A stretch of DNA of 64,000 nucleotides from Escherichia coli. GTDB taxonomy: Bacteria; Pseudomonadota; Gammaproteobacteria; Enterobacterales; Enterobacteriaceae. Below, piece by piece: positions 20,683 to 59,044 of this stretch (its first letter is position 1; each line of letters opens with the position of its first letter). The notes beneath the pieces were generated by a model. That model worked only from the letters and a program-made list of their open reading frames with translations, ran no database searches and was not told where the DNA came from. A program made the translations under genes and the position numbers. The stretch lies in assembly GCF_030013205.1 (NCBI RefSeq), contig NZ_CP122648.1. One strand, given 5' to 3'.

Positions 20683-23154
20683 TTAAGAATCAGCCTGACT
20701 CGGGATCAGTTTTTGCCAGATAACTGAAACGTATTTTGCCTGGTAACGGGCGTCATCAAGTGCATTATGGCGCTCACCTTCGAATGGAATAGCCGTTCTG
20801 GCATCGAAGTCTATGGCTTTCCCCAGCTCAACGATTGTGCGTACATCGCGATCGTTGTAGTAACGCCACGGGCAGGGGATCCCCTGCCGTTCGTATGAAC
20901 GGCGCAAAATCGTGTTGTCGAAGTTGGCTCCATTTCCCCAAACCTGAACAAAAAATTCACCGGAGTTTTCGTCGATAAATTCTCGCAATTGTAACAGTGC
21001 ATCATCTAACGGGATTTCATCGGTCATAATGGCAGATTGCGCTTCGCGTGATTGCTTAAGCCACCATTTAATGGTGTCCCGATCAATGACTCCGCCAGCA
21101 GTTTCCAGATCGATAGTCTTACTAAATTCCGGTCCCATATCTCCGGTTTGCGGATCGAAAAATATTGCACCTATTGAGATGATCGGGGCATCAGGATTTT
21201 TTCCCATGGTTTCAAGGTCGATCATTAGATGGTCACACGTCCTGCTGGTGGATGTGATTTCGTGATGACCGTTCACCTTAATTGGGTGATCTGCCGTCTC
21301 GCCAGTTTCATTATCGCTATTGTGATGCTGATTGCCGCCAGTGTTCTCCTTGTGTGGATGTTCAGCGCCTTCCATTTCCTCCGGATCATCTTCCTGAACT
21401 TCAACCTGATACTCTTCATCGAATGTTTCTTGGTATGTTGCGTCGCCCATCACCGCGCCACAATCAGGGCAGTTGCCGCCGCCGGTCTGACCGCAGGCGG
21501 TGCAGACTTTTTCCACTTCCTGTTGCGCTACTGGTTCAGGCTGTTTCGTTTCTGGCTCGTTTTGTAACGCATTTGGACTGTTTTGTTCCGCTTTTTGGTA
21601 GTTCCGTTCCGATTCATGCTGGTTCTGGTTCACAGAATCGCGGGTCTGGAGCCCCTTAACCCATTTCGGATCATTCGGGTCACTAATCCCTTCAACAAAT
21701 TCACCACGTGATGCAGCAAGCAACTTATCGGCGTCAGGCTGGCTGATATTGGCTGCCTGCATAATTTTGTTTACTTCGTCAGCGGTAACTTTTATCGGCT
21801 CTGGTTGTTCTGAATCTTCAGCGGTATCTACATTTTGCGGTAAGCCCGTGTATGTGCCATTTTTTCGGGCAAAATATTCTTCTTTTGTGATTTCAGTGGC
21901 GCCAGCAGCCAGTGCCTTATCCAGACCAGAGAGTTTGTTTGCGCGACCGTATTTTTCTCCGTCCTTATCTGCGAAGAGGAAATAGAACGGCCCCTCACGC
22001 TCTACAGATGGTTCAGCTTCCGGCGCGGTTTCATTTTTTGGGATATCAGATACCTCAGTTTCCACTGCATCAGTTTGTGTTTCTGATGACTGGAGAACAT
22101 CAACAGTGCCCAGGTCTGTTTCTTCATTCTCAAACACGCCCTTTGTCGTCAGGTATTCGCAGATATATTTGTTCAGTGCTACGGGATCTTTGTGAATGTC
22201 GATCGGACGCTCACGGACAAGGCCAAAAATAGTTTGGCGGTCGTAGCGAAGGGCATCAGGCTGTTTGCGCATTGATGCCGAGATACGCTTCCAGTCTTCG
22301 CGGTCGTTGTCGATAACTTCTTTTTTTGCCCAGCGATGGATGCTGCCGTCAATGTTTCCGGCATCCACATCACTAGGCCAGAGAGCGTAGGCCAGTTCGT
22401 CATCCAGTGTTTTCCATGTCTGCTTGTATTCGCGATGAATGGCAGCAATGACCGGGCTGATTTTTCCTGTTGAATTTTCAGTGTACTGTTGATTGGCTCT
22501 GGCGCGGGCGAGATCAACAACAGACGTGTATTTTCCGGTTTCCTTGCGTTCACCTTCGCGACGTTTTTTCCAGATGCGCATCTCTGCCTGAATTTCGGGC
22601 CATTTAGCACCAGGAATACATTTATGCTTAACCCACCCAATGGCGTGCAACTTAAGCTCCGGATACATGGCGTTAACTTCTGGCATTTTCATCAACGCTT
22701 CAACGATATGTCCGTCGAATGTTGCCATGTCTTCCTGCAACAATTCCTGTGCGCTAATAACCATATCAACGGTGATGTTTTCACATGTGTCGAACTTAAC
22801 CATGACAGCGTTCTGTACTTCAGGGGCCAGCTTGTCAAAAGTGACGTTCATCGGATCGGATTCAGTCTCAACCGGGACAAAAGAAGCAGACTCCTCATCC
22901 CAGCGGTTTTCCTGCATATATTCAGCATCCCATGAATCGAGGGCAGGGCGGGGTATGCCAGGTTTATCCTCGCAGACAATAAATTTATAAGCGCAGTCCT
23001 GAGCAGCCGGATAATGTTCCAGGAATTGCCAGTGAAATTTTGCTCGAGCACGGCGTTCGTCGCCAGCTTCAATGGCTGTGGCTACAGCCACAGCGCCTTC
23101 TTCCCTTGTTGCCAGTTCGTCAGGAATAGCGGCGCAAATAAAGACTTTACTCAT
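20683..23154 (-). CDS. ydfE: large prophage exonuclease: acidic low-complexity N-terminal region, CxxC...CxxC zinc ribbon, C-terminal DEDDh 3'-5' exonuclease domain
   Basis: ORF 20683..23190 has a TTG at its top; likely ATG at 23154 (MSKVFICAAIPDE) with GAGG upstream. Motifs MIDLETMG (Exo I), VWGNGANFDNTIL (Exo II), ERHNALDDARYQAKY (Exo III, H-x4-D); CTACGQTGGGNCPDCGAV zinc ribbon. Symbol by synteny with the K-12 fragment next to ydfD, not by sequence match. Confidence 0.75.
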   Translation of the reverse strand: MSKVFICAAIPDELATREEGAVAVATAIEAGDERRARAKFHWQFLEHYPAAQDCAYKFIVCEDKPGIPRPALDSWDAEYMQENRWDEESASFVPVETESDPMNVTFDKLAPEVQNAVMVKFDTCENITVDMVISAQELLQEDMATFDGHIVEALMKMPEVNAMYPELKLHAIGWVKHKCIPGAKWPEIQAEMRIWKKRREGERKETGKYTSVVDLARARANQQYTENSTGKISPVIAAIHREYKQTWKTLDDELAYALWPSDVDAGNIDGSIHRWAKKEVIDNDREDWKRISASMRKQPDALRYDRQTIFGLVRERPIDIHKDPVALNKYICEYLTTKGVFENEETDLGTVDVLQSSETQTDAVETEVSDIPKNETAPEAEPSVEREGPFYFLFADKDGEKYGRANKLSGLDKALAAGATEITKEEYFARKNGTYTGLPQNVDTAEDSEQPEPIKVTADEVNKIMQAANISQPDADKLLAASRGEFVEGISDPNDPKWVKGLQTRDSVNQNQHESERNYQKAEQNSPNALQNEPETKQPEPVAQQEVEKVCTACGQTGGGNCPDCGAVMGDATYQETFDEEYQVEVQEDDPEEMEGAEHPHKENTGGNQHHNSDNETGETADHPIKVNGHHEITSTSRTCDHLMIDLETMGKNPDAPIISIGAIFFDPQTGDMGPEFSKTIDLETAGGVIDRDTIKWWLKQSREAQSAIMTDEIPLDDALLQLREFIDENSGEFFVQVWGNGANFDNTILRRSYERQGIPCPWRYYNDRDVRTIVELGKAIDFDARTAIPFEGERHNALDDARYQAKYVSVIWQKLIPSQADS

Positions 23155-24438: not shown

Positions 24439-24567
24439 TCAGCCGTTAGATTTTGCCGAACTGGAAAGCGCCTGTTTAAACTCACTGAAGCTGAGAGCTT
24501 CTTCGCCTTCGGCAAGGCCTTCGAAGTATTCTTCGTAAGCCTTTTCCATGATTGTGTCGAAATCCAT
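24439..24567 (-). CDS. ydfB: Qin prophage protein YdfB (42 aa)
   Basis: Manual translation of the minus strand: MDFDTIMEKAYEEYFEGLAEGEEALSFSEFKQALSSSAKSNG; below the ORF-track size cutoff; coordinates +/-1 nt. Confidence 0.7.
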   Translation of the reverse strand: MDFDTIMEKAYEEYFEGLAEGEEALSFSEFKQALSSSAKSNG

Positions 24568-24568
24568 A

Positions 24569-24724
24569 TCACTCACCTGAGTTTCTTTCCAGCCAGCGAC
24601 GGGCACCATTTTCGGTTTTAAACGTTTTGCTTTTGGTATACGTCATTGCGGTGAACGTGCCGTCCTGGTTTGGAAACACGCCGTACACCAGAGATTCGTT
24701 GTTGCCAAGATCGATAGTATCCAT
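24569..24724 (-). CDS. ydfA: Qin prophage protein YdfA (51 aa)
   Basis: Internal start MDTIDLGNNESLVYGVFPNQDGTFTAMTYTKSKTFKTENGARRWLERNSGE within ORF 24569..24802. Confidence 0.75.
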   Translation of the reverse strand: MDTIDLGNNESLVYGVFPNQDGTFTAMTYTKSKTFKTENGARRWLERNSGE

Positions 24725-24890
24725 GCTGACCTCATTTCCCCTTAACGCTGGGGTAGCGGAACTGTTTGCTGAGAACACCGTGCGGTGTGTTGATGCAAAC
24801 AAGATTAGCCATGACTAACATATCGGTCAAGTGATTTTGTATGCTATAGCTAACATAATTGATGTGGTAAAAGATAACTCATTGATGATG

Positions 24891-25298
24891 TTATCTTTTA
24901 TTTGTCCGCTGACGGGCTTTTAGTAATTCTTCAAAGAGTTTATTGAAGTTTTTTACTCGAGCTCGCATTTCGGCGAGCTGGGTATCCTGTTCTGATTCTG
25001 GCAGTGCATTAAACAGCTCAAGGAGCTCTAGTTCTTTGGGGGATAAGGCAACTGGCTTCTCAACAGGTGGTGTTGGTTGCTTGTCTTCATCGCCAAATAG
25101 AATCCATGTTGGTGAGCATTGCAATACTTTGCTGAGGGCAAAAAGGTTCTTCCCTGTAGGTTCACTATCACCCCGTTCCCATTGTGATACAGACACATGG
25201 GAGATTTTCAGGGCTTTAGCAAGAGAGCTTTGGGTGTGTTTGAGGTTTTTCCGACGATACCTGATGCGTTCGCCGATAGTTAAATTTTTTGTTTCCAT
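24891..25298 (-). CDS. dicA: prophage repressor DicA (HTH_XRE, P22 C2-like)
   Basis: 135-aa ORF; HTH LKHTQSSLAKALKISHVSVSQWERG; divergent from dicC. Confidence 0.9.
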   Translation of the reverse strand: METKNLTIGERIRYRRKNLKHTQSSLAKALKISHVSVSQWERGDSEPTGKNLFALSKVLQCSPTWILFGDEDKQPTPPVEKPVALSPKELELLELFNALPESEQDTQLAEMRARVKNFNKLFEELLKARQRTNKR

Positions 25299-25332
25299 AG
25301 TTAGCTAATGCTAAATCGTATTGACTATGTTT

Positions 25333-25367
25333 TTGTTAACATCTATCTTGTTAGTTATGACTAACAA
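25333..25367. promoter_or_regulatory. putative operator in dicA-dicC divergent promoter region
   Basis: Palindrome ttgttagt-tatg-actaacaa (25348..25367) plus a related half-site ttgttaac at 25333. Confidence 0.4.
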
Positions 25368-25381
25368 TAAAGGTGTTTTAA

Positions 25382-25612
25382 ATGCTTAAAACTGACGCTC
25401 TTTTGTATTTCGGTTCAAAAACAAAACTTGCACAAGCAGCAGGTATTCGTTTGGCTTCGCTTTATAGCTGGAAAGGGGATTTAGTTCCCGAAGGTCGCGC
25501 GATGCGTCTACAGGAGGCATCTGGCGGGGAGCTTCAGTATGATCCCAAAGTTTATGATGAATATCGTAAGACGAAGCGGGCGGGGCGGTTGAACAATGAA
25601 AATCACTCCTGA
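25382..25612 (+). CDS. dicC: Cro-like regulator DicC
   Basis: 76-aa ORF MLKTDALLYFGSKTKLAQAAGIRLASLYSWKG... Confidence 0.9.
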   Translation: MLKTDALLYFGSKTKLAQAAGIRLASLYSWKGDLVPEGRAMRLQEASGGELQYDPKVYDEYRKTKRAGRLNNENHS

Positions 25613-25919
25613 ACAGGCTCGTGAGGCTCTGGATGCCTGGATATGTCGACCAGGAATGACACAGGAGCAGGCGACGATATTAATCACTGAAGCATTCTGG
25701 GCTTTGAAAGAGCGCCCGAACATCGATGTTCAGCGTGTCACATATGAAGGTGGCGCGATTGATCAGCGAGCGCTTGGCGTTATCTGGTCATCACCTGACG
25801 GAGAAATACGTCGCTACGACAGTCGCCTAAACATAATCTGTCGCGAGTGCCGGAAGAGCGAAGTTATGCAGCGCATACTGGCTTTCTATCAGGGTAATTT
25901 TCAGGACGTGGCGCAGTGA
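25596..25919 (+). CDS. hypothetical prophage early-region protein
   Basis: 107-aa ATG-initiated ORF overlapping the dicC stop by 17 nt; its TGA overlaps the GTG start of the next gene (GTGAGTG). Confidence 0.45.
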   Translation: MKITPEQAREALDAWICRPGMTQEQATILITEAFWALKERPNIDVQRVTYEGGAIDQRALGVIWSSPDGEIRRYDSRLNIICRECRKSEVMQRILAFYQGNFQDVAQ

Positions 25920-26362
25920 GTGCACCGGCAACCATTCTTGATATGTGCTGTGGCAGCCGCATGTTCTGGTTCGATAAGTCTGACGAACGGGCGATATTCA
26001 GCGATATCAGAAAAGAAGGATACACATTACGCAATGGGAGACGCTTGATTATCAGCCCTGACATTATCGCAGATTTTCGTGCATTATCATTTGCAGACGC
26101 ATCTTTTTCGATGGTTGTATTAGACCCTCCGCATCTTGAGAGTGTTGGTGATAACGCCTGGATGGGAAAGAAATATGGACGGCTGAATAAAGATGCCTGG
26201 CGTGATGATTCGCGACAGAGATTTAAAGAAGCCTTTCGGGGGTTGAGGCCGCACGGCGTTCTGATTTTTTAATGGAATGAAACGCAAATACCGGTAAGCC
26301 AGATTCTGGCACTGACAGACAGAAAACCTGTTATCTGTCAACGAACAGGGAAAAAACGATAA
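25916..26362 (+). pseudogene. small SAM-dependent methyltransferase-like gene interrupted by an in-frame TAA
   Basis: LDMCCGS (motif I-like) then VVLDPPH (motif IV-like, DPPY/NPPY class) and LRPHGVLIF; TAA at 26270-26272; same frame stays open 29 more codons (WNETQIPVSQILALTDRKPVICQRTGKKR) with no start codon of its own. Confidence 0.5.
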
Positions 26363-26694
26363 AACCCACTGGATTATTTTTATGAAAGAGGCATCCAGTG
26401 AGTAGATTCGTAAGGCTACAGATACGTATATCTGAATAATTAAATTCAGTTCTGTAAATAAAATTTAATCCTTAACCGGATGGATTTCTGCACCCTCAGA
26501 ACATCAGGAGGCCGCCCGAAAGGGCGGTAGTGAAATGCGAATGTTCAAAATTATTATTGAAACGGGAATAGCTGGTGGAGATTTTGAGGATGTATTCGAA
26601 GTGGACGATGACGCAACACCTGAGGAAATTCATGACGGAGCATAAGAAATTTTCTTTAACTACTGCAATTACTCATACCACGAAATAAAAGACG

Positions 26695-26886
26695 ATGAGG
26701 AAGAACAAAGTGGCTGATTTTTGTTCAGCTAAATATAACATCAGTTTTGAAGAGCGGGATGAACTATTAATGGACTATGGTGAGTTACGCGGTGGAAGTG
26801 CTGCTGATGTCGAATCCTAGCGTGATGACTATGAAGCGGGAAAAACTCCGGTCGAAGCATATTGTGATGAGTGGGGCGATGAATGA
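26695..26886 (+). pseudogene. short acidic ORF with single in-frame TAG
   Basis: MRKNKVADFCSAKYNISFEERDELLMDYGELRGGSAADVES-TAG(26818)-RDDYEAGKTPVEAYCDEWGDE-TGA; downstream segment has no start codon. Confidence 0.35.
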
Positions 26887-27170
26887 GCGAGATTAATTAT
26901 CAGGAAGGGCATGAAACGGCGGGGCAAGCAAAACCAGTGGCATGGCGATATCGCTACGTGAAAAAAGGCGTTACGGACTTTCAGGGGAAGTAGTGGTCTG
27001 GTGACTGGAAATATGTACCGAAAAAAGAGGATTGTAACGACAGGCCGAACTATCAAATTCAGGCCTTATTCACTGCCTCACCAGTCCCAGTTACATCAGA
27101 AGAACTGGTTAAAGCTGTGCACTTTTATGAACAACTAAAACGCGAAAATCCACCAACATCCGGCAACTAG
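26883..27170 (+). pseudogene. short ORF with single in-frame TAG
   Basis: MSEINYQEGHETAGQAKPVAWRYRYVKKGVTDFQGK-TAG(26991)-WSGDWKYVPKKEDCNDRPNYQIQALFTASPVPVTSEELVKAVHFYEQLKRENPPTSGN-TAG; downstream segment lacks a start. Confidence 0.35.
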
Positions 27171-27424
27171 ATTAATGGATTAACTATGTCGGTTAAACGA
27201 CCAGCCAACTGAAAAAGCGGAAACCTGATTACAGGTTGCCAGATAAGGCAATGAGCTACCTGGCGCGGAACGGACTGATAAGTATGGGGAATGTTTTACG
27301 ATGAACCTTTAGACTAAAGAGTTTGTAACGCTATGTAAGTGATTTTTTCTGGTTTAGATATTTATATGTCCGGCCAAATTGAGGTGTGTTTAAATGTAAT
27401 TGCACATTGATTGTAGGAGGAATA

Positions 27425-27604
27425 ATGAAAAACGCATTGCAGTTTTTGTTTGTTGCGTTCTGGTTGTTCGCATCATGTATGCCCATCATCTTCACAGCAA
27501 GGTATATGGAAAAAGTTGATGTTTTGATATTAATATTTGGATATATAAATGCCCTTTTTTTAGGGGTGTTCATGGCGGTCATGTGCATTGAATACTGGCG
27601 GTAA
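27425..27604 (+). CDS. small two-TM membrane protein (59 aa), function unknown
   Basis: ATG at 27425 preceded by AGGAGG 7 nt upstream; MKNALQFLFVAFWLFASCMPIIFTARYMEKVDVLILIFGYINALFLGVFMAVMCIEYWR; very AT-rich codons. Confidence 0.5.
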   Translation: MKNALQFLFVAFWLFASCMPIIFTARYMEKVDVLILIFGYINALFLGVFMAVMCIEYWR

Positions 27605-27938
27605 ATACAGCGAACTCCATTGGTTTAGTTGGATATTTACTGTGCTGGACAAAAACGGTTTGCGGGGAAATCTTAGTTAAGTAGAATGACTGCGGGTGCT
27701 TGAGGCTATCTGCCTCGGGCATGGACACCAACGGCAGATAGAGAAAAGCCCCAGTTAACATTACGCGTCCTGCAAGACGCTTAACATTAATCTGAGGCCA
27801 ATTTCATGCTAGACACATGTAGGTTAGCCTCTTACGTGCCGAAAGGCACGGAGAAGCAGGCTATTGTTAACACCAAGTTGTAATGTCCCCTTTGAACCAT
27901 TCTAAAATGTCCCCAGACAATTCTCTGGGGGATTTTTC

Positions 27939-29252
27939 ATGATCAAAGAGACTGTTACGATGAGTCATAAGGAACTCCACCGACTTCAGATTATTCAGGA
28001 ACAAGCTGCGGCACGCATTGGCATTTCTATTCGGCAGGTTAAACGTCTGGTGCAACGGTATAGAAATGAAGGGCCTTCTGGTCTGGTTTCCCACCGACGT
28101 GGAAAGCGTCCTAATAATTCCTTTTCTACTGAATTCAGAGCAACAGTAATTTCACTCCTCAAAGGCCGTTACGCTGATTTTGGACCTACGTTTGCGTGCG
28201 AAAAATTGCGCGAGATACACGGTTTATCTTTATCCGTTGAAACTCTCAGAAAGTGGATGATAGAAGAGGGGTTATGGCGTGAACGCCGTCGTAAAATTGC
28301 CCGTATATATCAACGCCGCATGCGACGACCATCTTACGGTGAACTGATCCAGATTGATGGCTCACCTCATGACTGGTTTGAAAATCGAGGCCCCAGATGT
28401 ACACTGATCGTTTTCATTGATGATGCCACCAGTGCGTTGATGGCGTTGCGTTTTGTGCCTGCTGAAACAACCCGGGCTTACATGGAAACCCTCCGGGGTT
28501 ACCTTAATGATCATGGCGTACCGCTCGCTCTCTACTCTGATAGACACAGTATATTCAGGGTAAATAACCCAGAGCGGGAAGGTGAGCTGACCCAGTTCAC
28601 TCGTGCGATAAAGACACTGGGCATCGAGCCAATCCATGCCAACAGCCCGCAGGCAAAAGGGCGGGTAGAGCGCGCCAATCAGACACTACAGGACAGGCTG
28701 GTCAAAGAAATGCGGCTTCAGAATATCAGTGATATTGAAACAGCAAATGCATGGTTGCCGACCTTTATTGAAGCCTATAACAACCGGTTCGCTACGTCGC
28801 CTCGTACTACTGATAATGCTCATCTTGATGTGCACCATTCTGAAGAGGAACTGGGTTATATCTTCAGCCTACAGGCGAAGCGCGTTCTGTCTAAAAATCT
28901 CACTTTCCAGTACAAAAGCAGTGCGTTTCAGGTACGCAGTGAGGGCCGGGGATATCGACTTAGGCATTCGGTTGTTACTGTATGCGAGAACTTTGACGGT
29001 GAAATTAACGTTCTGTATGACGGGAAAGCGCTGGGCTGGGAAAAGTATGTTGATGGCCCGGAGCCTATACCACTGGATGATGAAAAGAGTGTCCATGAAC
29101 GAGTGGATAATGCCCGTATTGATTTACGCTCAAAATACTATGTTAAACCTAAAGCTGACCATCCCTGGCTTACGCGCCGAACGCAAAGTCATCAGCAAGT
29201 TAAGCCCCCGAAGTTACCTAAAAAGAAGCCTGATCCCGATAAAAAAGATTGA
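27939..29252 (+). CDS. DDE transposase with N-terminal HTH and integrase-core (rve) domain, IS481/ISNCY-like
   Basis: 437-aa ORF; HTH IGISIRQVKRLVQRY; catalytic-looking residues in LIQIDGSPHD, LALYSDRHSIF and KGRVERANQTLQD; basic Lys/Pro-rich C-terminus. Confidence 0.8.
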   Translation: MIKETVTMSHKELHRLQIIQEQAAARIGISIRQVKRLVQRYRNEGPSGLVSHRRGKRPNNSFSTEFRATVISLLKGRYADFGPTFACEKLREIHGLSLSVETLRKWMIEEGLWRERRRKIARIYQRRMRRPSYGELIQIDGSPHDWFENRGPRCTLIVFIDDATSALMALRFVPAETTRAYMETLRGYLNDHGVPLALYSDRHSIFRVNNPEREGELTQFTRAIKTLGIEPIHANSPQAKGRVERANQTLQDRLVKEMRLQNISDIETANAWLPTFIEAYNNRFATSPRTTDNAHLDVHHSEEELGYIFSLQAKRVLSKNLTFQYKSSAFQVRSEGRGYRLRHSVVTVCENFDGEINVLYDGKALGWEKYVDGPEPIPLDDEKSVHERVDNARIDLRSKYYVKPKADHPWLTRRTQSHQQVKPPKLPKKKPDPDKKD

Positions 29253-29585
29253 AACCAAGATCGATTCGGTTGAGTGCATATCCATTCATAGGGTAGATTC
29301 TTAAGTCGCGTTTCTGGTGTTCATTTTCGGGTGGTTTGTTACTTGTTTTACCGGGGATATGCCAGAAACGCGCTGAGTCAGTCTGGGCGGTGCGCGTAAT
29401 GAGGCGTTATGGTAAATAGCCTATGCTAATGTCCGCTAAGAGCAAGAAGCGGAAGTTGGCAGTTTTGTGGACTGTCCCCACAAAAGTGACTACAGAAATA
29501 GTTGCAATTCATAATTGATCATGGGTTGTCAGTTAAACTCGTGGCGATTTAAATAGACTAATTGGGAGTGCGTCCATTACTTATA

Positions 29586-29635
29586 TCTTGTAATGTTAAC
29601 TATCAGAAATTCTTGTAATGTTAACTATCAGAAAT
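29586..29635. repeat. perfect 25-bp tandem direct repeat x2 (tcttgtaatgttaactatcagaaat)
   Basis: Read directly; each unit contains a GTTAAC palindrome; lies just downstream of the flxA terminator. Confidence 0.85.
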
Positions 29636-29676
29636 GATACAAAGATAATATGTCTTTAAAGAAAAGGCTGATGGCG

Positions 29677-29699
29677 AAAAGTGGCCCGATGAGGGCCAC
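29677..29699 (-). terminator. rho-independent terminator of flxA
   Basis: Minus-strand hairpin GUGGCCC-ucauc-GGGCCAC followed by UUUU, 15 nt after the flxA stop. Confidence 0.5.
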
Positions 29700-29713
29700 A
29701 ATACGGCTGTCAC

Positions 29714-30046
29714 TTAGACGTAAATATCAATGGTGCCAGCGGTATTTGTATCGTCTTTTTTCTCTTCTTTTTTATCAGGCTGAACTGTCGCGTCTTCATT
29801 CTTTTTCTCTGCCTGCTGCCTTAACAACTGCTCCAGTTGAGCCCAGAGGCTTTCAATTTGCTTCTGTACCAATGCAGCCATTTCTTTTTTCTGCTGTGTC
29901 GTCATCCCCTCTTCCGATGAGATTTTCCCAAGCTTTTCAGTCAGCACCTGAATTTGTCTTGTGATTTTGGCTATTTCTGATGTTCCTTCCGGGGCGGAGT
30001 TGTTTGAAATAACGGTTGAGGTATTTCCCTGAATTGTGACAGACAT
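29714..30046 (-). CDS. flxA: FlxA (FliA-regulated protein, coiled-coil, Lys/Glu-rich C-terminus)
   Basis: 110-aa ORF MSVTIQGNTSTVISNNSAPEGTSEIAKITRQIQVLTEKLG... Confidence 0.9.
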   Translation of the reverse strand: MSVTIQGNTSTVISNNSAPEGTSEIAKITRQIQVLTEKLGKISSEEGMTTQQKKEMAALVQKQIESLWAQLEQLLRQQAEKKNEDATVQPDKKEEKKDDTNTAGTIDIYV

Positions 30047-30069
30047 AGATTTCTCCTTTTAAAAAAGCA

Positions 30070-30096
30070 CTATCGGCATGCACAAAAAAATCTTTA
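30070..30096 (-). promoter_or_regulatory. sigma-28 (FliA) class promoter for flxA
   Basis: Minus strand reads TAAAGATT-N11-GCCGATAG, matching consensus TAAAGTTT-N11-GCCGATAA, about 25-50 nt upstream of the flxA ATG. Confidence 0.6.
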
Positions 30097-30248
30097 ATCG
30101 TATTTCTTGTGTCATTAATTGTTTGATGTTCAGATTGTTTTCCTCGCGGGCTGGCGCGCCTCAGAAAGTAAAGCTTGTTGACAGGGGTAAACGTTCGGCA
30201 ATAATTTTCTGCCGCATGCGGGTGTTGCATAAAACGTGTTACGTTCCT

Positions 30249-30554
30249 TTATCGACAGGTCAGGTCACCGCTCACCCGCCGACGAGAAAGCAACACTGAC
30301 ATGCTAAAGCAAAAAATAGATGAATAAGTTGAGTTGTGCATATGTAGCCTGACCGTCACAAAGTATATGGTGTCTGTACCAGTAAGATGATGGCCGGACT
30401 CTTTAAAAACGAGCTGACCTGCACAATACAGGATGGACTTAGCAATGGCTGCTCCTGGCACAAAGCGGACAGTGATCACCGTTCTTACGACTACTTTCTG
30501 ACTTCCTTCGTGACTTGCCCTAAGCATGTTGTAGTGCGATACTTGTAATGACAT
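30249..30554 (-). CDS. ydfV: hypothetical prophage protein (ydfV position)
   Basis: 101-aa ORF between flxA and relB, divergent from relB as in K-12; symbol by position and length only. Confidence 0.45.
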   Translation of the reverse strand: MSLQVSHYNMLRASHEGSQKVVVRTVITVRFVPGAAIAKSILYCAGQLVFKESGHHLTGTDTIYFVTVRLHMHNSTYSSIFCFSMSVLLSRRRVSGDLTCR

Positions 30555-30578
30555 TTGTAATTACAAGAGGTGTAAGAC

Positions 30579-30818
30579 ATGGGTAGCATTAACCTGCGTA
30601 TTGACGATGAACTTAAAGCGCGTTCTTACGCCGCGCTTGAAAAAATGGGTGTAACTCCTTCTGAAGCGCTTCGTCTCATGCTCGAGTATATCGCTGACAA
30701 TGAACGCTTGCCGTTCAAACAGACACTCCTGAGTGATGAAGATGCTGAACTTGTGGAGATAGTGAAAGAACGGCTTCGTAATCCTAAGCCAGTACGTGTG
30801 ACGCTGGATGAACTCTGA
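30579..30818 (+). CDS. relB: RelB antitoxin (RHH)
   Basis: 79-aa ORF MGSINLRIDDELKARSYAALEKMGVTPSEALRLMLEYIADNERLPF... Confidence 0.95.
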   Translation: MGSINLRIDDELKARSYAALEKMGVTPSEALRLMLEYIADNERLPFKQTLLSDEDAELVEIVKERLRNPKPVRVTLDEL

Positions 30819-31105
30819 TGGCGTATTTTCTGGATTTTGACGAGCGGGCACTAAAGGAATGGCGAAAGCTGGGCTCGACGGTACGTGAACAGTTGAAAAA
30901 GAAGCTGGTTGAAGTACTTGAGTCACCCCGGATTGAAGCAAACAAGCTCCGTGGTATGCCTGATTGTTACAAGATTAAGCTCCGGTCTTCAGGCTATCGC
31001 CTTGTATACCAGGTTATAGACGAGAAAGTTGTCGTTTTCGTGATTTCTGTTGGGAAAAGAGAACGCTCGGAAGTATATAGCGAGGCGGTCAAACGCATTC
31101 TCTGA
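30818..31105 (+). CDS. relE: RelE mRNA interferase toxin
   Basis: 95-aa ORF MAYFLDFDERALKEWRKLGSTVREQLKKKLVEVLESPRIEANKLRG...; start overlaps relB stop (ATGA). Confidence 0.95.
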   Translation: MAYFLDFDERALKEWRKLGSTVREQLKKKLVEVLESPRIEANKLRGMPDCYKIKLRSSGYRLVYQVIDEKVVVFVISVGKRERSEVYSEAVKRIL

Positions 31106-31176
31106 ACCAAAGCATGACATCTCTGTTTCGCACCGAAGGTGACACTTCTGCTTTGCGTTGACAGGAGAAGCAGGCT

Positions 31177-31332
31177 ATGAAGCAGCAAAAGGCGATGTTA
31201 ATCGCCCTGATCGTCATCTGTTTAACCGTCATAGTGACGGCACTGGTAACGAGGAAAGACCTCTGCGAGGTACGAATCCGAACCGGCCAGACGGAGGTCG
31301 CTGTCTTCACAGCTTACGAACCTGAGGAGTAA
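31177..31332 (+). CDS. hokD: Hok-family membrane toxin HokD (RelF)
   Basis: Manual translation: MKQQKAMLIALIVICLTVIVTALVTRKDLCEVRIRTGQTEVAVFTAYEPEE (51 aa); below the ORF-track cutoff. Confidence 0.85.
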   Translation: MKQQKAMLIALIVICLTVIVTALVTRKDLCEVRIRTGQTEVAVFTAYEPEE

Positions 31333-40083: not shown

Positions 40084-40629
40084 ATGGAAGTCAACAAAAA
40101 GCAGCTGGCTGACATTTTCGGTGCGAGTATCCGTACCATTCAGAACTGGCAGGAACAGGGAATGCCCGTTCTGCGAGGCGGTGGCAAGGGTAATGAGGTG
40201 CTTTATGACTCTGCCGCCGTTATAAGATGGTATGCCGAAAGGGATGCTGAAATTGAGAACGAAAAGCTGCGCCGGGAAGTTGAAGAACTGCGGCAGGCCA
40301 GCGAGACAGATCTCCAGCCAGGGACTATTGAGTACGAACGCCATCGACTTACGCGTGCGCAGGCCGACGCACAGGAGCTGAAAAATGCCAGAGACTCCGC
40401 TGAAGTGGTGGAAACCGCATTCTGTACTTTCGTGCTGTCGCGGATCGCAGGTGAAATTGCCAGTATTCTCGACGGGATCCCCCTGTCGGTGCAGCGGCGT
40501 TTTCCGGAACTGGAAAACCGACATGTTGATTTCCTGAAACGGGATATCATCAAAGCCATGAACAAAGCAGCCGCGCTGGATGAACTGATACCGGGGTTGC
40601 TGAGTGAATATATCGAACAGTCAGGTTAA
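40084..40629 (+). CDS. nohA: terminase small subunit Nu1 (full length, lambda-like)
   Basis: 181-aa ORF MEVNKKQLADIFGASIRTIQNWQEQGMPVLRGGGKGNEVLYDSAAVIRWYAERD... Confidence 0.95.
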   Translation: MEVNKKQLADIFGASIRTIQNWQEQGMPVLRGGGKGNEVLYDSAAVIRWYAERDAEIENEKLRREVEELRQASETDLQPGTIEYERHRLTRAQADAQELKNARDSAEVVETAFCTFVLSRIAGEIASILDGIPLSVQRRFPELENRHVDFLKRDIIKAMNKAAALDELIPGLLSEYIEQSG

Positions 40630-42088
40630 CAGGCTGCGGCATTTTGTCCGCGCCGGGCTTCGCTCACTGTTCAGGCCGGAGCCACAGACCGCCGTTGAAT
40701 GGGCGGATGCTAATTACTATCTCCCGAAAGAATCCGCATACCAGGAAGGGCGCTGGGAAACACTGCCCTTTCAGCGGGCCATCATGAATGCGATGGGCAG
40801 CGACTACATCCGTGAGGTGAATGTGGTGAAGTCTGCCCGTGTTGGTTATTCCAAAATGCTGCTGGGTGTTTATGCCTACTTCATAGAGCATAAGCAGCGC
40901 AACACCCTTATCTGGTTGCCGACGGATGGTGATGCCGAGAACTTTATGAAAACTCACGTTGAGCCGACCATCCGTGATATTCCTTCGCTGCTTGCGCTGG
41001 CCCCGTGGTATGGCAAAAAGCACCGGGATAACACGCTCACCATGAAGCGTTTCACCAATGGTCGTGGCTTCTGGTGCCTGGGCGGTAAAGCGGCAAAAAA
41101 CTACCGTGAAAAGTCGGTGGATGTGGCGGGTTATGATGAACTTGCTGCTTTTGATGATGATATTGAACAGGAAGGCTCTCCGACGTTCCTGGGTGACAAG
41201 CGTATTGAAGGCTCGGTCTGGCCAAAGTCCATCCGTGGCTCCACGCCCAAAGTGAGAGGCACCTGCCAGATTGAGCGTGCAGCCAGTGAATCCCCGCATT
41301 TTATGCGTTTTCATGTTGCCTGCCCGCACTGCGGGGAGGAGCAGTACCTTAAATTTGGCGATAAAGAGACGCCGTTTGGCCTCAAATGGACGCCGGATGA
41401 TCCCTCCAGCGTGTTTTATCTCTGCGAGCATAATGCCTGCGTCATCCGCCAGCAGGAGCTGGACTTTACTGATGCCCGTTATATCTGCGAAAAGACCGGG
41501 ATCTGGACCCGTGATGGCATTCTCTGGTTTTCGTCATCCGGTGAAGAGATTGAGCCGCCGGACAGTGTGACCTTTCACATCTGGACGGCGTACAGCCCGT
41601 TCACCACCTGGGTGCAGATTGTCAAAGACTGGATGAAAACGAAAGGGGATACGGGAAAACGTAAAACCTTCGTGAACACCACGCTCGGTGAGACGTGGGA
41701 AGCGAAAATCGGCGAACGTCCGGATGCTGAAGTGATGGCAGAGCGGAAAGAGCATTATTCAGCGCCCGTTCCTGACCGTGTGGCTTACCTGACCGCCGGT
41801 ATCGACTCCCAGCTGGACCGCTACGAAATGCGCGTATGGGGATGGGGGCCGGGTGAGGAAAGCTGGCTGATTGACCGGCAGATTATTATGGGCCGCCACG
41901 ACGATGAACAGACGCTGCTGCGTGTGGATGAGGCCATCAATAAAACCTATACCCGCCGGAATGGTGCAGAAATGTCGATATCCCGTATCTGCTGGGATAC
42001 TGGCGGGATTGACCCGACCATTGTGTATGAACGCTCGAAAAAGCATGGGCTGTTCCGGGTGATCCCCATTAAAGGGGCATCCGTCTAA
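40604..42088 (+). pseudogene. terminase large subunit gpA, truncated after about 494 codons
   Basis: Lambda A-like N-terminal region (Walker A-like region, ...[14 protein letters not shown]) ends at a stop at 42086; full-length lambda gpA is about 641 aa. Confidence 0.85.
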
Positions 42089-42149
42089 GGGACGCTTCCT
42101 GAACAACATTAACGCGGTCAGTAAAACAGACTTTGCTGATAAGCGTGGT

Positions 42150-43904
42150 ATGCGTTATGTGCGGGTTAACGCTCCTGCAGGTGCAACATCTGGAAAATAT
42201 TACCCTGTTGTTGTTATGCGTTCTGCTGGCTCAGTAAGCGAACTGGCATCAAGGGTCATTATCACCACGGCACCGCGAACCGCAGGCGATCCGATGAATA
42301 ACTGCGAGTTTAACGGATTTGTTATGCCTGGTGGCTGGACTGACAGGGGGCGTTATGCTTATGGAATGTTCTGGCAATATCAAAACAATGAACGAGCCAT
42401 CCACTCAATAATGATGAGTAATAAGGGCGATGATTTGCGCTCTGTGTTCTATGTTGATGGCGCTGCTTTCCCTGTTTTTGCGTTTATCGAAGATGGCCTG
42501 TCAATATCCGCACCTGGTGCTGATCTCGTTGTTAATGATACGACCTATAAGTTTGGGGCAACAAATCCAGCGACTGAATGTATCGCGGCGGACGTTATCC
42601 TTGATTTTAAGAGTGGGCGTGGTTTTTATGAGTCTCATTCGTTAATCGTTAACGATAACTTGTCGTGCAAAAAACTTTTTGCCACAGACGAAATTGTAGC
42701 GCGTGGTGGTAATCAGATTCGAATGATAGGTGGGGAGTATGGTGCATTATGGCGTAATGATGGCGCTAAAACTTACCTGCTGCTTACCAATCAAGGTGAT
42801 GTTTATGGTGGCTGGAATACATTAAGACCGTTTGCTATTGATAACGCAACCGGCGAACTGGTTATTGGAACCAAACTGTCCGCAAGTCTGAACGGTAATG
42901 CATTAACAGCAACAAAGCTGCAAACGCCAAGACTGGTTTCTGGTGTTGAGTTTGATGGTTCCAAAGATATTACTTTAACCGCCGCGCATGTGGCTGCTTT
43001 TGCCAGAAGGGCAACGGATACATATGCCGATGCGGATGGTGGCGTTCCCTGGAATGCCGAATCAGGCGCTTACAATGTCACCCGCTCTGGCAACAGCTAT
43101 ATTCTGGTTAACTTCTATACCGGAGTCGGAAGTTGCCGGACATTGCAGATGAAGGCGCATTACAGAAATGGAGGTCTGTTCTACCGTTCCTCAAGAGATG
43201 GCTATGGTTTTGAGGAAGACTGGGCAGAAGTTTATACCTCGAAAAATCTTCCACCAGAAAGCTACCCAGTCGGTGCACCAATCCCGTGGCCATCAGATAC
43301 CGTTCCGTCTGGTTATGCCCTGATGCAGGGGCAGACTTTTGACAAATCTGCTTACCCGAAACTTGCAGCCGCTTATCCGTCAGGCGTGATCCCTGATATG
43401 CGTGGCTGGACGATTAAGGGCAAACCTGCCAGTGGTCGGGCCGTATTGTCTCAGGAACAGGACGGCATTAAATCGCACACCCACAGCGCCAGCGCATCCA
43501 GTACGGATTTGGGGACGAAAACCACATCGTCGTTTGATTACGGCACTAAATCCACGAATAACACCGGGGCGCATACCCATAGTGTTAGCGGTACGGCTGC
43601 TTCAGCCGGTGCACATACCCATTCGATAACATTTGTTTCAGGTGGCACCAAAGGTGCTCCGGGAAGTGGATCACCTGATTATTCTAAATACAGTGTTAAC
43701 ACTTCTTCTGCAGGCGCTCATACGCACTCTGTATCGGGTACTGCTGCAAGCGCAGGTGCACACGCACATACTGTAGGTATTGGTGCGCATACGCACTCGG
43801 TTGCGATTGGTTCACATGGACACACCATCACCGTTAACGCTGCTGGTAACGCGGAAAACACCGTCAAAAACATCGCATTTAACTATATTGTGAGGCTTGC
43901 ATAA
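42150..43904 (+). CDS. side tail fibre C-terminal remnant with HxH repeat tip domain
   Basis: 584-aa ORF; frame is open upstream to 42063 without a start; C-terminal [20 protein letters not shown]... repeats; followed by tfa with ATGA-type overlap. Confidence 0.8.
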
Positions 43905-44479
43905 TGGCATTCAGAATGAGTGAACAACCACGGACCATAAAAATTTATAATCTGCTGGCCGGAACTAATGAATTTATTGGTGAAGGTGATGCATATATTC
44001 CGCCTCATACAGGTCTGCCAGCAAACAGTACCGATATTGCACCGCCAGATATTCCGGCTGGCTTCGTGGCTGTTTTCAACAGTGATGAGTCATCGTGGCA
44101 TCTCGTTGAAGATCATCGGGGTAAAACGGTTTATGACGTGGCTTCCGGCGACGCGTTATTTATTTCTGAACTCGGTCCGTTACCGGAAAATGTTACCTGG
44201 TTATCGCCGGAAGGGGAGTTTCAGAAGTGGAACGGCACAGCCTGGGTGAAGGATACGGAAGCAGAAAAACTGTTCCGGATCCGGGAGGCGGAAGAAACAA
44301 AAAACAACCTGATGCAGGTAGCCAGTGAGCATATTGCGCCGCTTCAGGATGCTGCAGATCTGGAAATCGCAACGGAGGAAGAAATCTCGTTGCTGGAAGC
44401 ATGGAAAAAGTATCGGGTATTGCTGAACCGTGTTGATACGTCAACTGCACAGGATATTGAATGGCCAGCACTGCCGTAG
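43904..44479 (+). CDS. tfaQ: tail fibre assembly protein
   Basis: 191-aa [57 protein letters not shown]... Confidence 0.9.
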
Positions 44480-44576
44480 GGTAAAACATATAAATTCTAT
44501 AATTAGATGTATCTTTCCATTTACGGCAAGGAAGGGGGCTTGGAAGACGTAAAGCATCTCACACCGAGATTATTTT

Positions 44577-45167
44577 TTATATGTCAGGTGTCTGAAGTTT
44601 TGCTTTGGCTCTTAAAATGGTTTGCCGCGAGGTTTTGAATTCCCGGGCAATGGCACTTATACTTACACCTGACTTAATTCGTTCGAATACCGCCTGTTTC
44701 TGTTCTTCATTTAACACAGGTGGTCGACCAAAACGTTTCCCTGCGCCGCGGGCACTTACTATCCCGGAATGAGTGCGTTCAAGTAAAAGGTCTCGTTCAA
44801 ATTCAGCGACTGCTGAAATTACTTGCATCATCATTTTTCCTGTTGGACTGGTCAGGTCAATGCCCCCCAATGCTAAGCAATGCACTCTGATACCTGTTTC
44901 GGTCAGTTGTTCCACTGTTTTCCTGATATCCATTGCATTACAACCAAGGCGATCCAGTTTTGTCACAATCAATTGATCACCACATTTCAGGCGAGCAAGC
45001 AACCGGTTAAAACCAGGACGCTCACTGGTTGCTGCTGAGCCGCTAATGTGTTCTTCGATTATTTGCTGAGGTTTGATTTTAAAACCTGCACTTTCGATTT
45101 CCCGGCGTTGATTTTCGGTGGTCTGATCCAGCGTTGATATCCGACAGTAAGCAAAAATTCGAGACAT
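44577..45167 (-). CDS. pinQ: serine recombinase DNA invertase Pin
   Basis: 196-aa [23 protein letters not shown]... with catalytic Ser in YCRIST and C-terminal HTH. Confidence 0.95.
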
Positions 45168-45483
45168 AGTGAGACTCTATACGAAATTGGTGTTCATATC
45201 ATAATGCATCTCAGAAAATAATTATGATTATTTTTGTGCATATTTGTATGTACACGTTCGAAAATAAACGAATGCGTATGCAACCCCGTAATTTTGGTGA
45301 GACCCAAAATCGATTTTGTGAAAAATGGCTTTAACTCGGTTTGTTTTTCGAGTTCCGGGCGGACTCAAGGAAGAAGAATAGTGTTGCGTGTTATTTTAAC
45401 CAGATTTCAAGTTGTTTGGTCGTGGAAAAGTGGAGCAAAATGTTGTTAAAGTGGAAAAATGATAAAAAAGTAAGTTTATTATA

Positions 45484-45717
45484 TTACATTTTACCATTTA
45501 AATTTTGGTTGTCTTTAAGAACTGATATCGCTGTTTGTAATAATTCTTTGTTATCCAGCCATGATTTTTTCTTTATGTTTCCTTCAATGTAATCAAGCAA
45601 TGTTCTGGTATTGATAGGTCTTCCCTGTTTTGCTACTTCCACTACAGCATCCCCTAGGATAATTCTTACTTCAGGAAGCTGCGCAGGGAACCACTTTAGG
45701 GTGTCTTTTGATTTCAT
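45484..45717 (-). CDS. ydfK: Qin prophage protein YdfK
   Basis: ORF 45484..45750; start at MKSKDTLKWFPAQLPEVRIILGDAVVEVAKQG (77 aa). Confidence 0.8.
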   Translation of the reverse strand: MKSKDTLKWFPAQLPEVRIILGDAVVEVAKQGRPINTRTLLDYIEGNIKKKSWLDNKELLQTAISVLKDNQNLNGKM

Positions 45718-58846: not shown

Positions 58847-59044
58847 TTTTGCACCTTTTAAGAGCCATTGAAAACAAGGAGTTGAGTCCTGATTGGTTTA
58901 TCGTATGGTCGAGTCGTTTAATTATCACCCTGATGTTGAACAACTTTAGTGCTGTATTACTGTGATCAATGTACCAGGACGTATAGCTACTGCGGGATAT
59001 GATATTTACACAATGTAATCTGTTATATACCAGTAAGGGAAAAT

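Follow-up and report, generated by a model that had tools for sequence, protein, structure and literature searches.

The known FliA promoter of flxA in an Escherichia coli cryptic prophage and its predicted counterparts across the FlxA family

Introduction

The first demonstration that flxA depends on FliA (sigma-28) came from Ide & Kutsukake (1997, Gene 199:19); the title of that paper describes the gene as FliA-dependent yet dispensable for motility development. In a ChIP-seq study of K-12, Fitzgerald et al. (2014, PLoS Genet, PMC4183435) gave the 28-mer TAAAGATTTTTTTGTGCATGCCGATAGT as the FliA motif for flxA, with a FAT score of 16. Citing the 1997 work, they termed flxA a ‘well-characterized FliA-dependent promoter’; the normalised expression of flxA in their Table 2 was 280 in motile MG1655 vs 2 in the fliA deletion, marked as significant. 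Zhao et al. (2007, PMC1935009), where the gene is labelled ‘Qin prophage’, found flxA decreased 28.4-fold in a fliA deletion and increased 8.2-fold five minutes after induction of FliA. Genomic SELEX with purified sigma-28 holoenzyme produced a peak in the ydfV/flxA spacer (Shimada et al. 2017, PMC5493296); in a 2024 study (PMC11237407) of hyper-motile mutants altered upstream of flhDC, flxA was up 35-fold, alongside class 3 genes.

The closest described system is flxAp of the K-12 Qin prophage. The locus analyzed here belongs to a 64-kb stretch of DNA from another E. coli strain, called the window below; its FlxA protein of 110 aa and its entire 202-bp ydfV-flxA spacer, the 28-mer included, are identical to those of K-12 MG1655 (b1566), and its chromosomal place, between rspB and ydfJ, is shared as well. 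The two prophages differ in what else has been kept: the strain considered here retains a near-intact IS1202-like transposase, integrase, excisionase and exonuclease, whereas in K-12 the DNA corresponding to window positions 25782-29068 is deleted, with only ‘ydfW’ left.

Among other FliA targets, the class 3 flagellar promoters (fliC, tar, motA, flgMN, flgKL) have the same bipartite sigma-28 layout with an 11-nt spacer, and the score of the flxA site is within the range of these validated sites; the -35 element of flgMN, TAAAGATT, is also that of flxA. Unlike the genes behind these promoters, flxA is a non-flagellar gene residing on a mobile element and reported to be dispensable for motility. 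Another gene of a cryptic prophage directly under FliA is ykfB (CP4-6, K-12); its promoter, however, is intragenic (inside yafY) and its regulation is weaker (118 vs 42), while the flxA promoter is intergenic with a ∼140-fold dependence.

Results

The flxA promoter

A preliminary description of this DNA, made from the sequence alone, had placed an almost consensus FliA promoter upstream of flxA at positions 30070-30096. These coordinates proved to be exact: the minus strand reads TAAAGATT TTTTTGTGCAT GCCGATAG, and 14 of 16 positions match TAAAGTTT-N11-GCCGATAA with the 11-nt spacer. The promoter and the gene are composed of the following elements.

30096..30089, minus strand: -35 element TAAAGATT, read directly; 7 of 8 matches to TAAAGTTT; the octamer of the published flgMN FliA site
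30088..30078, minus strand: spacer TTTTTGTGCAT, 11 nt, which is the spacing in all 52 aligned sites of Table 2 of Fitzgerald et al.
30077..30070, minus strand: -10 element GCCGATAG, 7 of 8 matches to GCCGATAA
30047..30069, minus strand: region from the -10 element to the start codon, holding the inferred transcription start and AAGGAG
30058..30053, minus strand: Shine-Dalgarno sequence AAGGAG, read from the sequence, between the -10 element and the flxA ATG
29714..30046, minus strand: flxA coding sequence, 110 aa (ORF; Pfam PF14282)
29699..29677, minus strand: intrinsic terminator GTGGCCC-TCATC-GGGCCAC-TTTT (sequence read and RNA fold)

The motif is on the coding strand of flxA, and the ATG comes 23 nt past the end of the -10 element. 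The two deviations from consensus, G for A at the final position of the -10 element and A for T at position 6 of the -35 element, are both present in validated FliA sites (flgMN, yrfF). Given the usual distance of 7-8 nt after a sigma-28 -10 element, transcription would start at about 30063..30061.

Short bipartite motifs arise randomly, and one could ask if the flxA motif is a chance match devoid of function. An example of what chance provides is the minus-strand site 58922..58948 (TAAAGTTGTTCAACATCAGGGTGATAA, with -10 GGTGATAA), a 3-mismatch match to the consensus upstream of a GntR-family regulator gene: 0.74 such matches are expected per window at three or fewer mismatches, its -10 lacks the CCGA core, and its low matrix score leaves it outside the top scores. 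We rejected this site as a chance match. At two or fewer mismatches, on the other hand, the flxA motif was the sole match on both strands of the 64 kb, with 0.03 expected from dinucleotide shuffles. We also used a FliA position weight matrix made from 24 published ChIP-seq sites (FAT>4, Table 2 of Fitzgerald et al. 2014), with flxA excluded; the flxA site scored 21.8 bits, the top score in the window on either strand (the median training site has 19.8), and none of 300 Markov-1 simulated 64-kb windows had a match that high, the highest being 20.9. Its position and strand fit flxA, a sigma-28 element is conserved across genera (see below), and binding and regulation have been published for the identical K-12 sequence; the notion of a functionless match is already refuted by these published data, and its probability is negligible.

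Could flxA be transcribed mainly from some other promoter, either a sigma-70 promoter or one giving read-through from ydfV, so that its FliA dependence is indirect? The ydfV gene does lie upstream on the same strand. Nevertheless, the FliA ChIP-seq peak has its motif at the flxA site, the purified sigma-28 holoenzyme selects the ydfV/flxA spacer in SELEX, expression of flxA drops ∼140-fold without FliA, and a consensus scan of the minus strand at 29200-30700 detected no sigma-70-like site. We regard an indirect dependence of this kind as extremely unlikely.

Thus, the proposal that FliA drives flxA holds, with spacer and protein equal to those of K-12 and with ChIP-seq, SELEX and fliA-deletion expression data available in K-12 for the same sequence. 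For the same reason (an identical 28-mer, spacer and protein, with published FliA data) the finding was already known; the experiment on FliA dependence that the preliminary description had put forward is one already carried out for the identical K-12 sequence. It was others who demonstrated that FliA binds this sequence and that flxA transcription depends on it; from sequence identity, the same would be expected in the strain considered here. The sigma-28 promoter of flxA is confirmed to be real; it has been known since 1997 and repeatedly re-confirmed genome-wide.

Two other sites in the window may be mentioned. The second-best match to the FliA matrix (TCCAGTCTTCGCGGTCGTTGTCGATAAC, 22290-22317, plus strand) has 18.8 bits, a score reached in ∼4% of simulated windows. 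It is situated antisense within the prophage exonuclease (recE-like) gene, which is absent from K-12 Qin, and it may be an intragenic FliA site of the kind described by Fitzgerald et al. Within the ydfV-flxA spacer, the plus strand carries a near-consensus sigma-70-like promoter at 30178-30205 (TTGACA-16-AATAAT, 11 of 12 matches) directed away from flxA, antisense into ydfV and toward relB. The ydfV product had no match in Pfam, NCBIfam or PHROG.

A self-contained cassette

The terminator hairpin begins 14 nt past the flxA stop codon. The 46-nt region around it folds with -17.3 kcal/mol (z = -3.6), and none of 200 shuffles folded equally well. A consensus terminator scan of the minus strand found nothing; this simple scan missed the hairpin because its T run has only four T. 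With its own promoter, ORF and terminator, flxA is a compact, self-contained monocistronic cassette of ∼420 bp (30096..29677). The neighbouring relBE-hokD-rem-ydfU-ydfT operons run on the other strand, and the G+C content of the cassette is 0.41-0.43 vs ∼0.53 in ydfU. The preliminary description had the cryptic prophage wired into the host motility regulon; this is correct for flxA, a single monocistronic cassette, but not for the prophage as a whole.

Such an arrangement resembles the phage ‘morons’, reportedly described by Hendrix and colleagues as autonomous promoter-gene-terminator insertions in lambdoid phages. As in a moron, promoter and terminator flank a single ORF in opposite orientation and of low G+C; flxA is absent from nearly all related phages, being patchy in related elements while present in unrelated replicons. 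The differences are that the flxA promoter is of sigma-28 rather than sigma-70 type, and that relBE and an IS accompany the cassette in a larger module shared with plasmids.

The mobile module and its transposase

The module and the transposase gene in it have the following positions.

27794..31181, no strand assigned: 3.4-kb mobile module with the IS1202-like transposase, the flxA cassette, ydfV, relB and relE, delimited by plasmid homology
27939..29252, plus strand: ORF of an IS1202-like (ISEsa1-family, ISNCY) transposase, 437 aa, with HTH and rve_3 domains

Over the full 27794..31181 the window has 97.6-97.8% nucleotide identity to the IncFIB/IncFII plasmids NZ_CP096189 and NZ_AP024282 (Enterobacter roggenkampii, E. 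asburiae), and its 29369..31164 part (flxA-ydfV-relBE) has 97.7% identity to a mobilisable Edwardsiella tarda plasmid of 6.5 kb. The 28-mer is identical in the module-bearing Enterobacter and Edwardsiella plasmids, as well as in phage PhiR42_1. With 97.7% identity to IncF plasmids over the IS/flxA/ydfV/relBE block, the relBE locus that Qin carries on the chromosome belongs to a module in circulation among plasmids. The plasmid copies of the module have hok as the neighbour at one end and a small DUF5431 ORF at the other; plasmid pEnt261 has the DUF5431 family annotated at the hok position, too.

The transposase ORF does adjoin flxA, in agreement with the preliminary description, which had set the promoter next to a transposase insertion; still, the ORF is downstream of flxA and convergent with it rather than at the promoter. 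Its end is 462 bp past the stop codon of flxA and ∼820 bp from the promoter, and with this distance and orientation it has no evident bearing on the flxA promoter. In comparison with the ISEsa1-family transposase of an Enterobacter plasmid, 437 of 446 residues are identical, the sole difference being an in-frame deletion of 9 aa in the N-terminal HTH region. In the PGAP/RefSeq annotation this uninterrupted 437-aa ORF is split in two, a pseudogene labelled as C-terminally truncated and a gene of its own, ‘ydfW’; ‘YdfW’ is merely the last 49 codons of the transposase, under a name that comes from the K-12 remnant. A search for inverted repeats at 27600-29600 gave no convincing terminal pair for the IS, and the homology breakpoints suggest termini of the IS close to 27794 and 29368.

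Between flxA and the IS we observed a perfect 25-bp tandem duplication (29586-29635; TCTTGTAATGTTAACTATCAGAAAT twice). Over the aligned stretch K-12 and PhiR42_1 are each 25 bp shorter, and there TCTTGTAATGTTAACTATCAGAAAT is probably present as a single copy.

The prophage around flxA

The prophage is located between rspB and a truncated ydfJ, roughly at window positions 19040-46000 (by the ETEC1748 annotation), which is the position of Qin. The segments 24500-30200 and 40500-45500 are 100% identical to those of porcine ETEC strains, e.g. ETEC1748 (NZ_CP122719.1), and the flxA region is 100% identical in several E. coli chromosomes. A Qin-type region was present in 1282 of 5426 complete E. coli genomes.

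Compared with phage PhiR42_1 (PV340562, 48.7 kb), the window is without 1.6 kb containing an O-like replication gene and without ∼20 kb of head and tail genes; because of these losses the prophage has rightly been called cryptic. At the junction of the 1.6-kb deletion (25780-25782) a YdaT-family gene is fused to a DUF977 gene, with the O-like replication gene gone; at the junction of the ∼20-kb deletion (42087-43263) the large terminase gene is fused to a tail-fibre gene. The 1.6-kb deletion does not occur in ATCC 8739. The deletion in K-12 is larger and has the same left junction as the 1.6-kb deletion of the window, a coincidence that suggests either successive deletions or a recombination hot spot.

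The FlxA family and its promoter

Pfam PF14282 matches FlxA with 53.8 bits (cut-off 26.3; 2.3e-14), and it matches all 43 aligned relatives. A HMMER scan of 1.84 billion representatives returned 48 relatives of FlxA; a scan of species-representative genomes, for which the query was a 6-sequence FlxA subgroup, returned 34 FlxA-family loci, in Enterobacter, Citrobacter, Kluyvera, Kosakonia, Cedecea, Leclercia, Lelliottia, Buttiauxella, Pseudocitrobacter, Pluralibacter, Phytobacter, Superficieibacter, Siccibacter, Pantoea and others.

With start codons chosen under guidance of homology, 36 of 37 FlxA-family loci had a match to the FliA matrix of 11-21 bits, with the -10 element ending 24-34 nt before the ATG; the sole locus without a match was a weak Burkholderiaceae hit. 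Among 1713 background 150-nt windows of the same loci only 0.6% reached 10 bits. Hence a sigma-28 promoter is predicted 23-34 nt from the ATG at every enterobacterial FlxA-family locus examined (>15 genera), including each of the chromosomal loci L008, L010, L020, L022, L025 and L039, and also at five plasmid loci and in phage PhiR42_1. At L025 the predicted -10 element ends 27 nt before the ATG. Divergent plasmid copies (57-66% identity), one of them beside a TraI relaxase gene, bear the motif too.

When 33 upstream regions were aligned with MAFFT, no columns were invariant except CGATA of GCCGATA; the G and C before it, together with a single A in the -35 element, were nearly so, and the spacer and the flanks were unconserved. 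Such a pattern is a clean phylogenetic footprint of the predicted sigma-28 site. On this comparative evidence the sigma-28 promoter is a predicted family-wide feature that travels with flxA-like genes, be they on chromosomes, on plasmids or in a prophage. Our literature search did not find family-wide conservation of the FlxA promoter described, which is absence of evidence only.

The chromosomal flxA-like loci lie just after the valU-lysV cluster, a run of tRNA-Val genes with a tRNA-Lys gene, in five of five non-Citrobacter loci scanned (Enterobacter, Kosakonia, Cedecea, Siccibacter and strain RIT691); in two Citrobacter loci scanned for tRNAs none was nearby. In both loci whose neighbours were examined, gltX was upstream of the tRNAs and a LysR gene was convergent. 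Chromosomal-type flxA was present in 1 of 5426 E. coli genomes.

One could propose that the promoter arose de novo in the prophage, i.e. that a phage gene was recently rewired to the host regulon and domesticated. It is true that flxA resides in a cryptic prophage, and that PHROGs keeps FlxA as a phage protein family. Against this, homologues with 26-66% protein identity all have the sigma-28 motif, set off from the ATG by a similar distance; these homologues are found in chromosomal (valU-lysV/LysR), plasmid (beside TraI) and other contexts; flxA occurs in just 1 of 50 697 phage records, as well as in 32 plasmid records; and plasmid DNA matches the module at 97.7% identity. We consider a de novo origin in the prophage very improbable. 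As the motif is family-wide at a similar distance from the ATG, the promoter would move with the gene rather than represent an adaptation of the prophage.

Discussion

Taken jointly, the results make it very likely that 30096..30070 of the minus strand is a functional class-3-type FliA promoter of the flxA cassette, that this promoter is ancestral to the family and that a mobile module brought flxA to E. coli. The sequence of events would be as follows. FlhDC would switch on fliA, and export of FlgM through completed hook-basal bodies would leave FliA free. Free FliA with RNA polymerase would then act at 30096..30070, with initiation a few nt downstream of GCCGATAG, around 30062. The expected product is a monocistronic flxA mRNA with a short leader, carrying AAGGAG and the 110-aa ORF and ending at the GC-rich hairpin past the stop codon.

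With regard to origin, the sigma-28 promoter would be ancestral to the FlxA family, belonging to the gene and not made by the prophage. E. coli, which is without the chromosomal copy of other Enterobacteriaceae, would have gained a FliA-controlled flxA through the plasmid-like relBE/flxA/IS module; it is the distribution of the module and of the chromosomal copies from which we infer this direction of transfer.

Fold and sequence searches gave no clue to what the protein does. The AlphaFold2 model (mean pLDDT 70), made with the 43-sequence alignment, has a helical hairpin (residues 23-41 and 49-86) between disordered residues 1-18 and 87-106, with Ser/Thr-rich terminal parts. A profile search of the PDB with FlxA matched designed coiled coils only, and a Foldseek search of the PDB with the model gave no match at E ≤ 0.001. 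In NCBIfam, Qin FlxA matched nothing and the chromosomal-type FlxA only sub-threshold coiled-coil noise (including FliJ, 16.5 bits vs a cut-off of 50); PHROGs lists the family as ‘unknown function’.

FlxA was detected in the exoproteome of E. coli cultures, rising with FlgK, FliD, FliC, FlgL and FlgM, in a list that also has the cytoplasmic CheY (PMC6391000, Table 1). At 42 C, a temperature with impaired flagellar export, FlxA protein and mRNA are reported to shift in opposite directions, the statement concerned not specifying which of the two rises (PMC6551532). These observations hint, weakly, at export of FlxA. Together with the conserved sigma-28 promoter and the nature of the protein (small, with disordered ends and a helical hairpin), they lead to a speculation in which FlxA would be a conserved late (class 3) flagellar component, most likely a substrate of flagellar type III export or a partner of one, and the Qin/plasmid copy a mobile xenologue supplying E. 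coli; we think it rather unlikely that this picture is right.

As a result on E. coli, the present one repeats the finding of 1997 and adds nothing new to it, though it is an instance of a genuine alternative-sigma promoter recognisable from sequence alone. A modest new value lies in the sigma-28 promoter as a probable hallmark of the FlxA family, one that would accompany the gene on its moves among chromosomes, plasmids and a prophage. FlxA itself would count as a conserved member of the late flagellar regulon, and one reasonably chosen for work on secretion or interactions.
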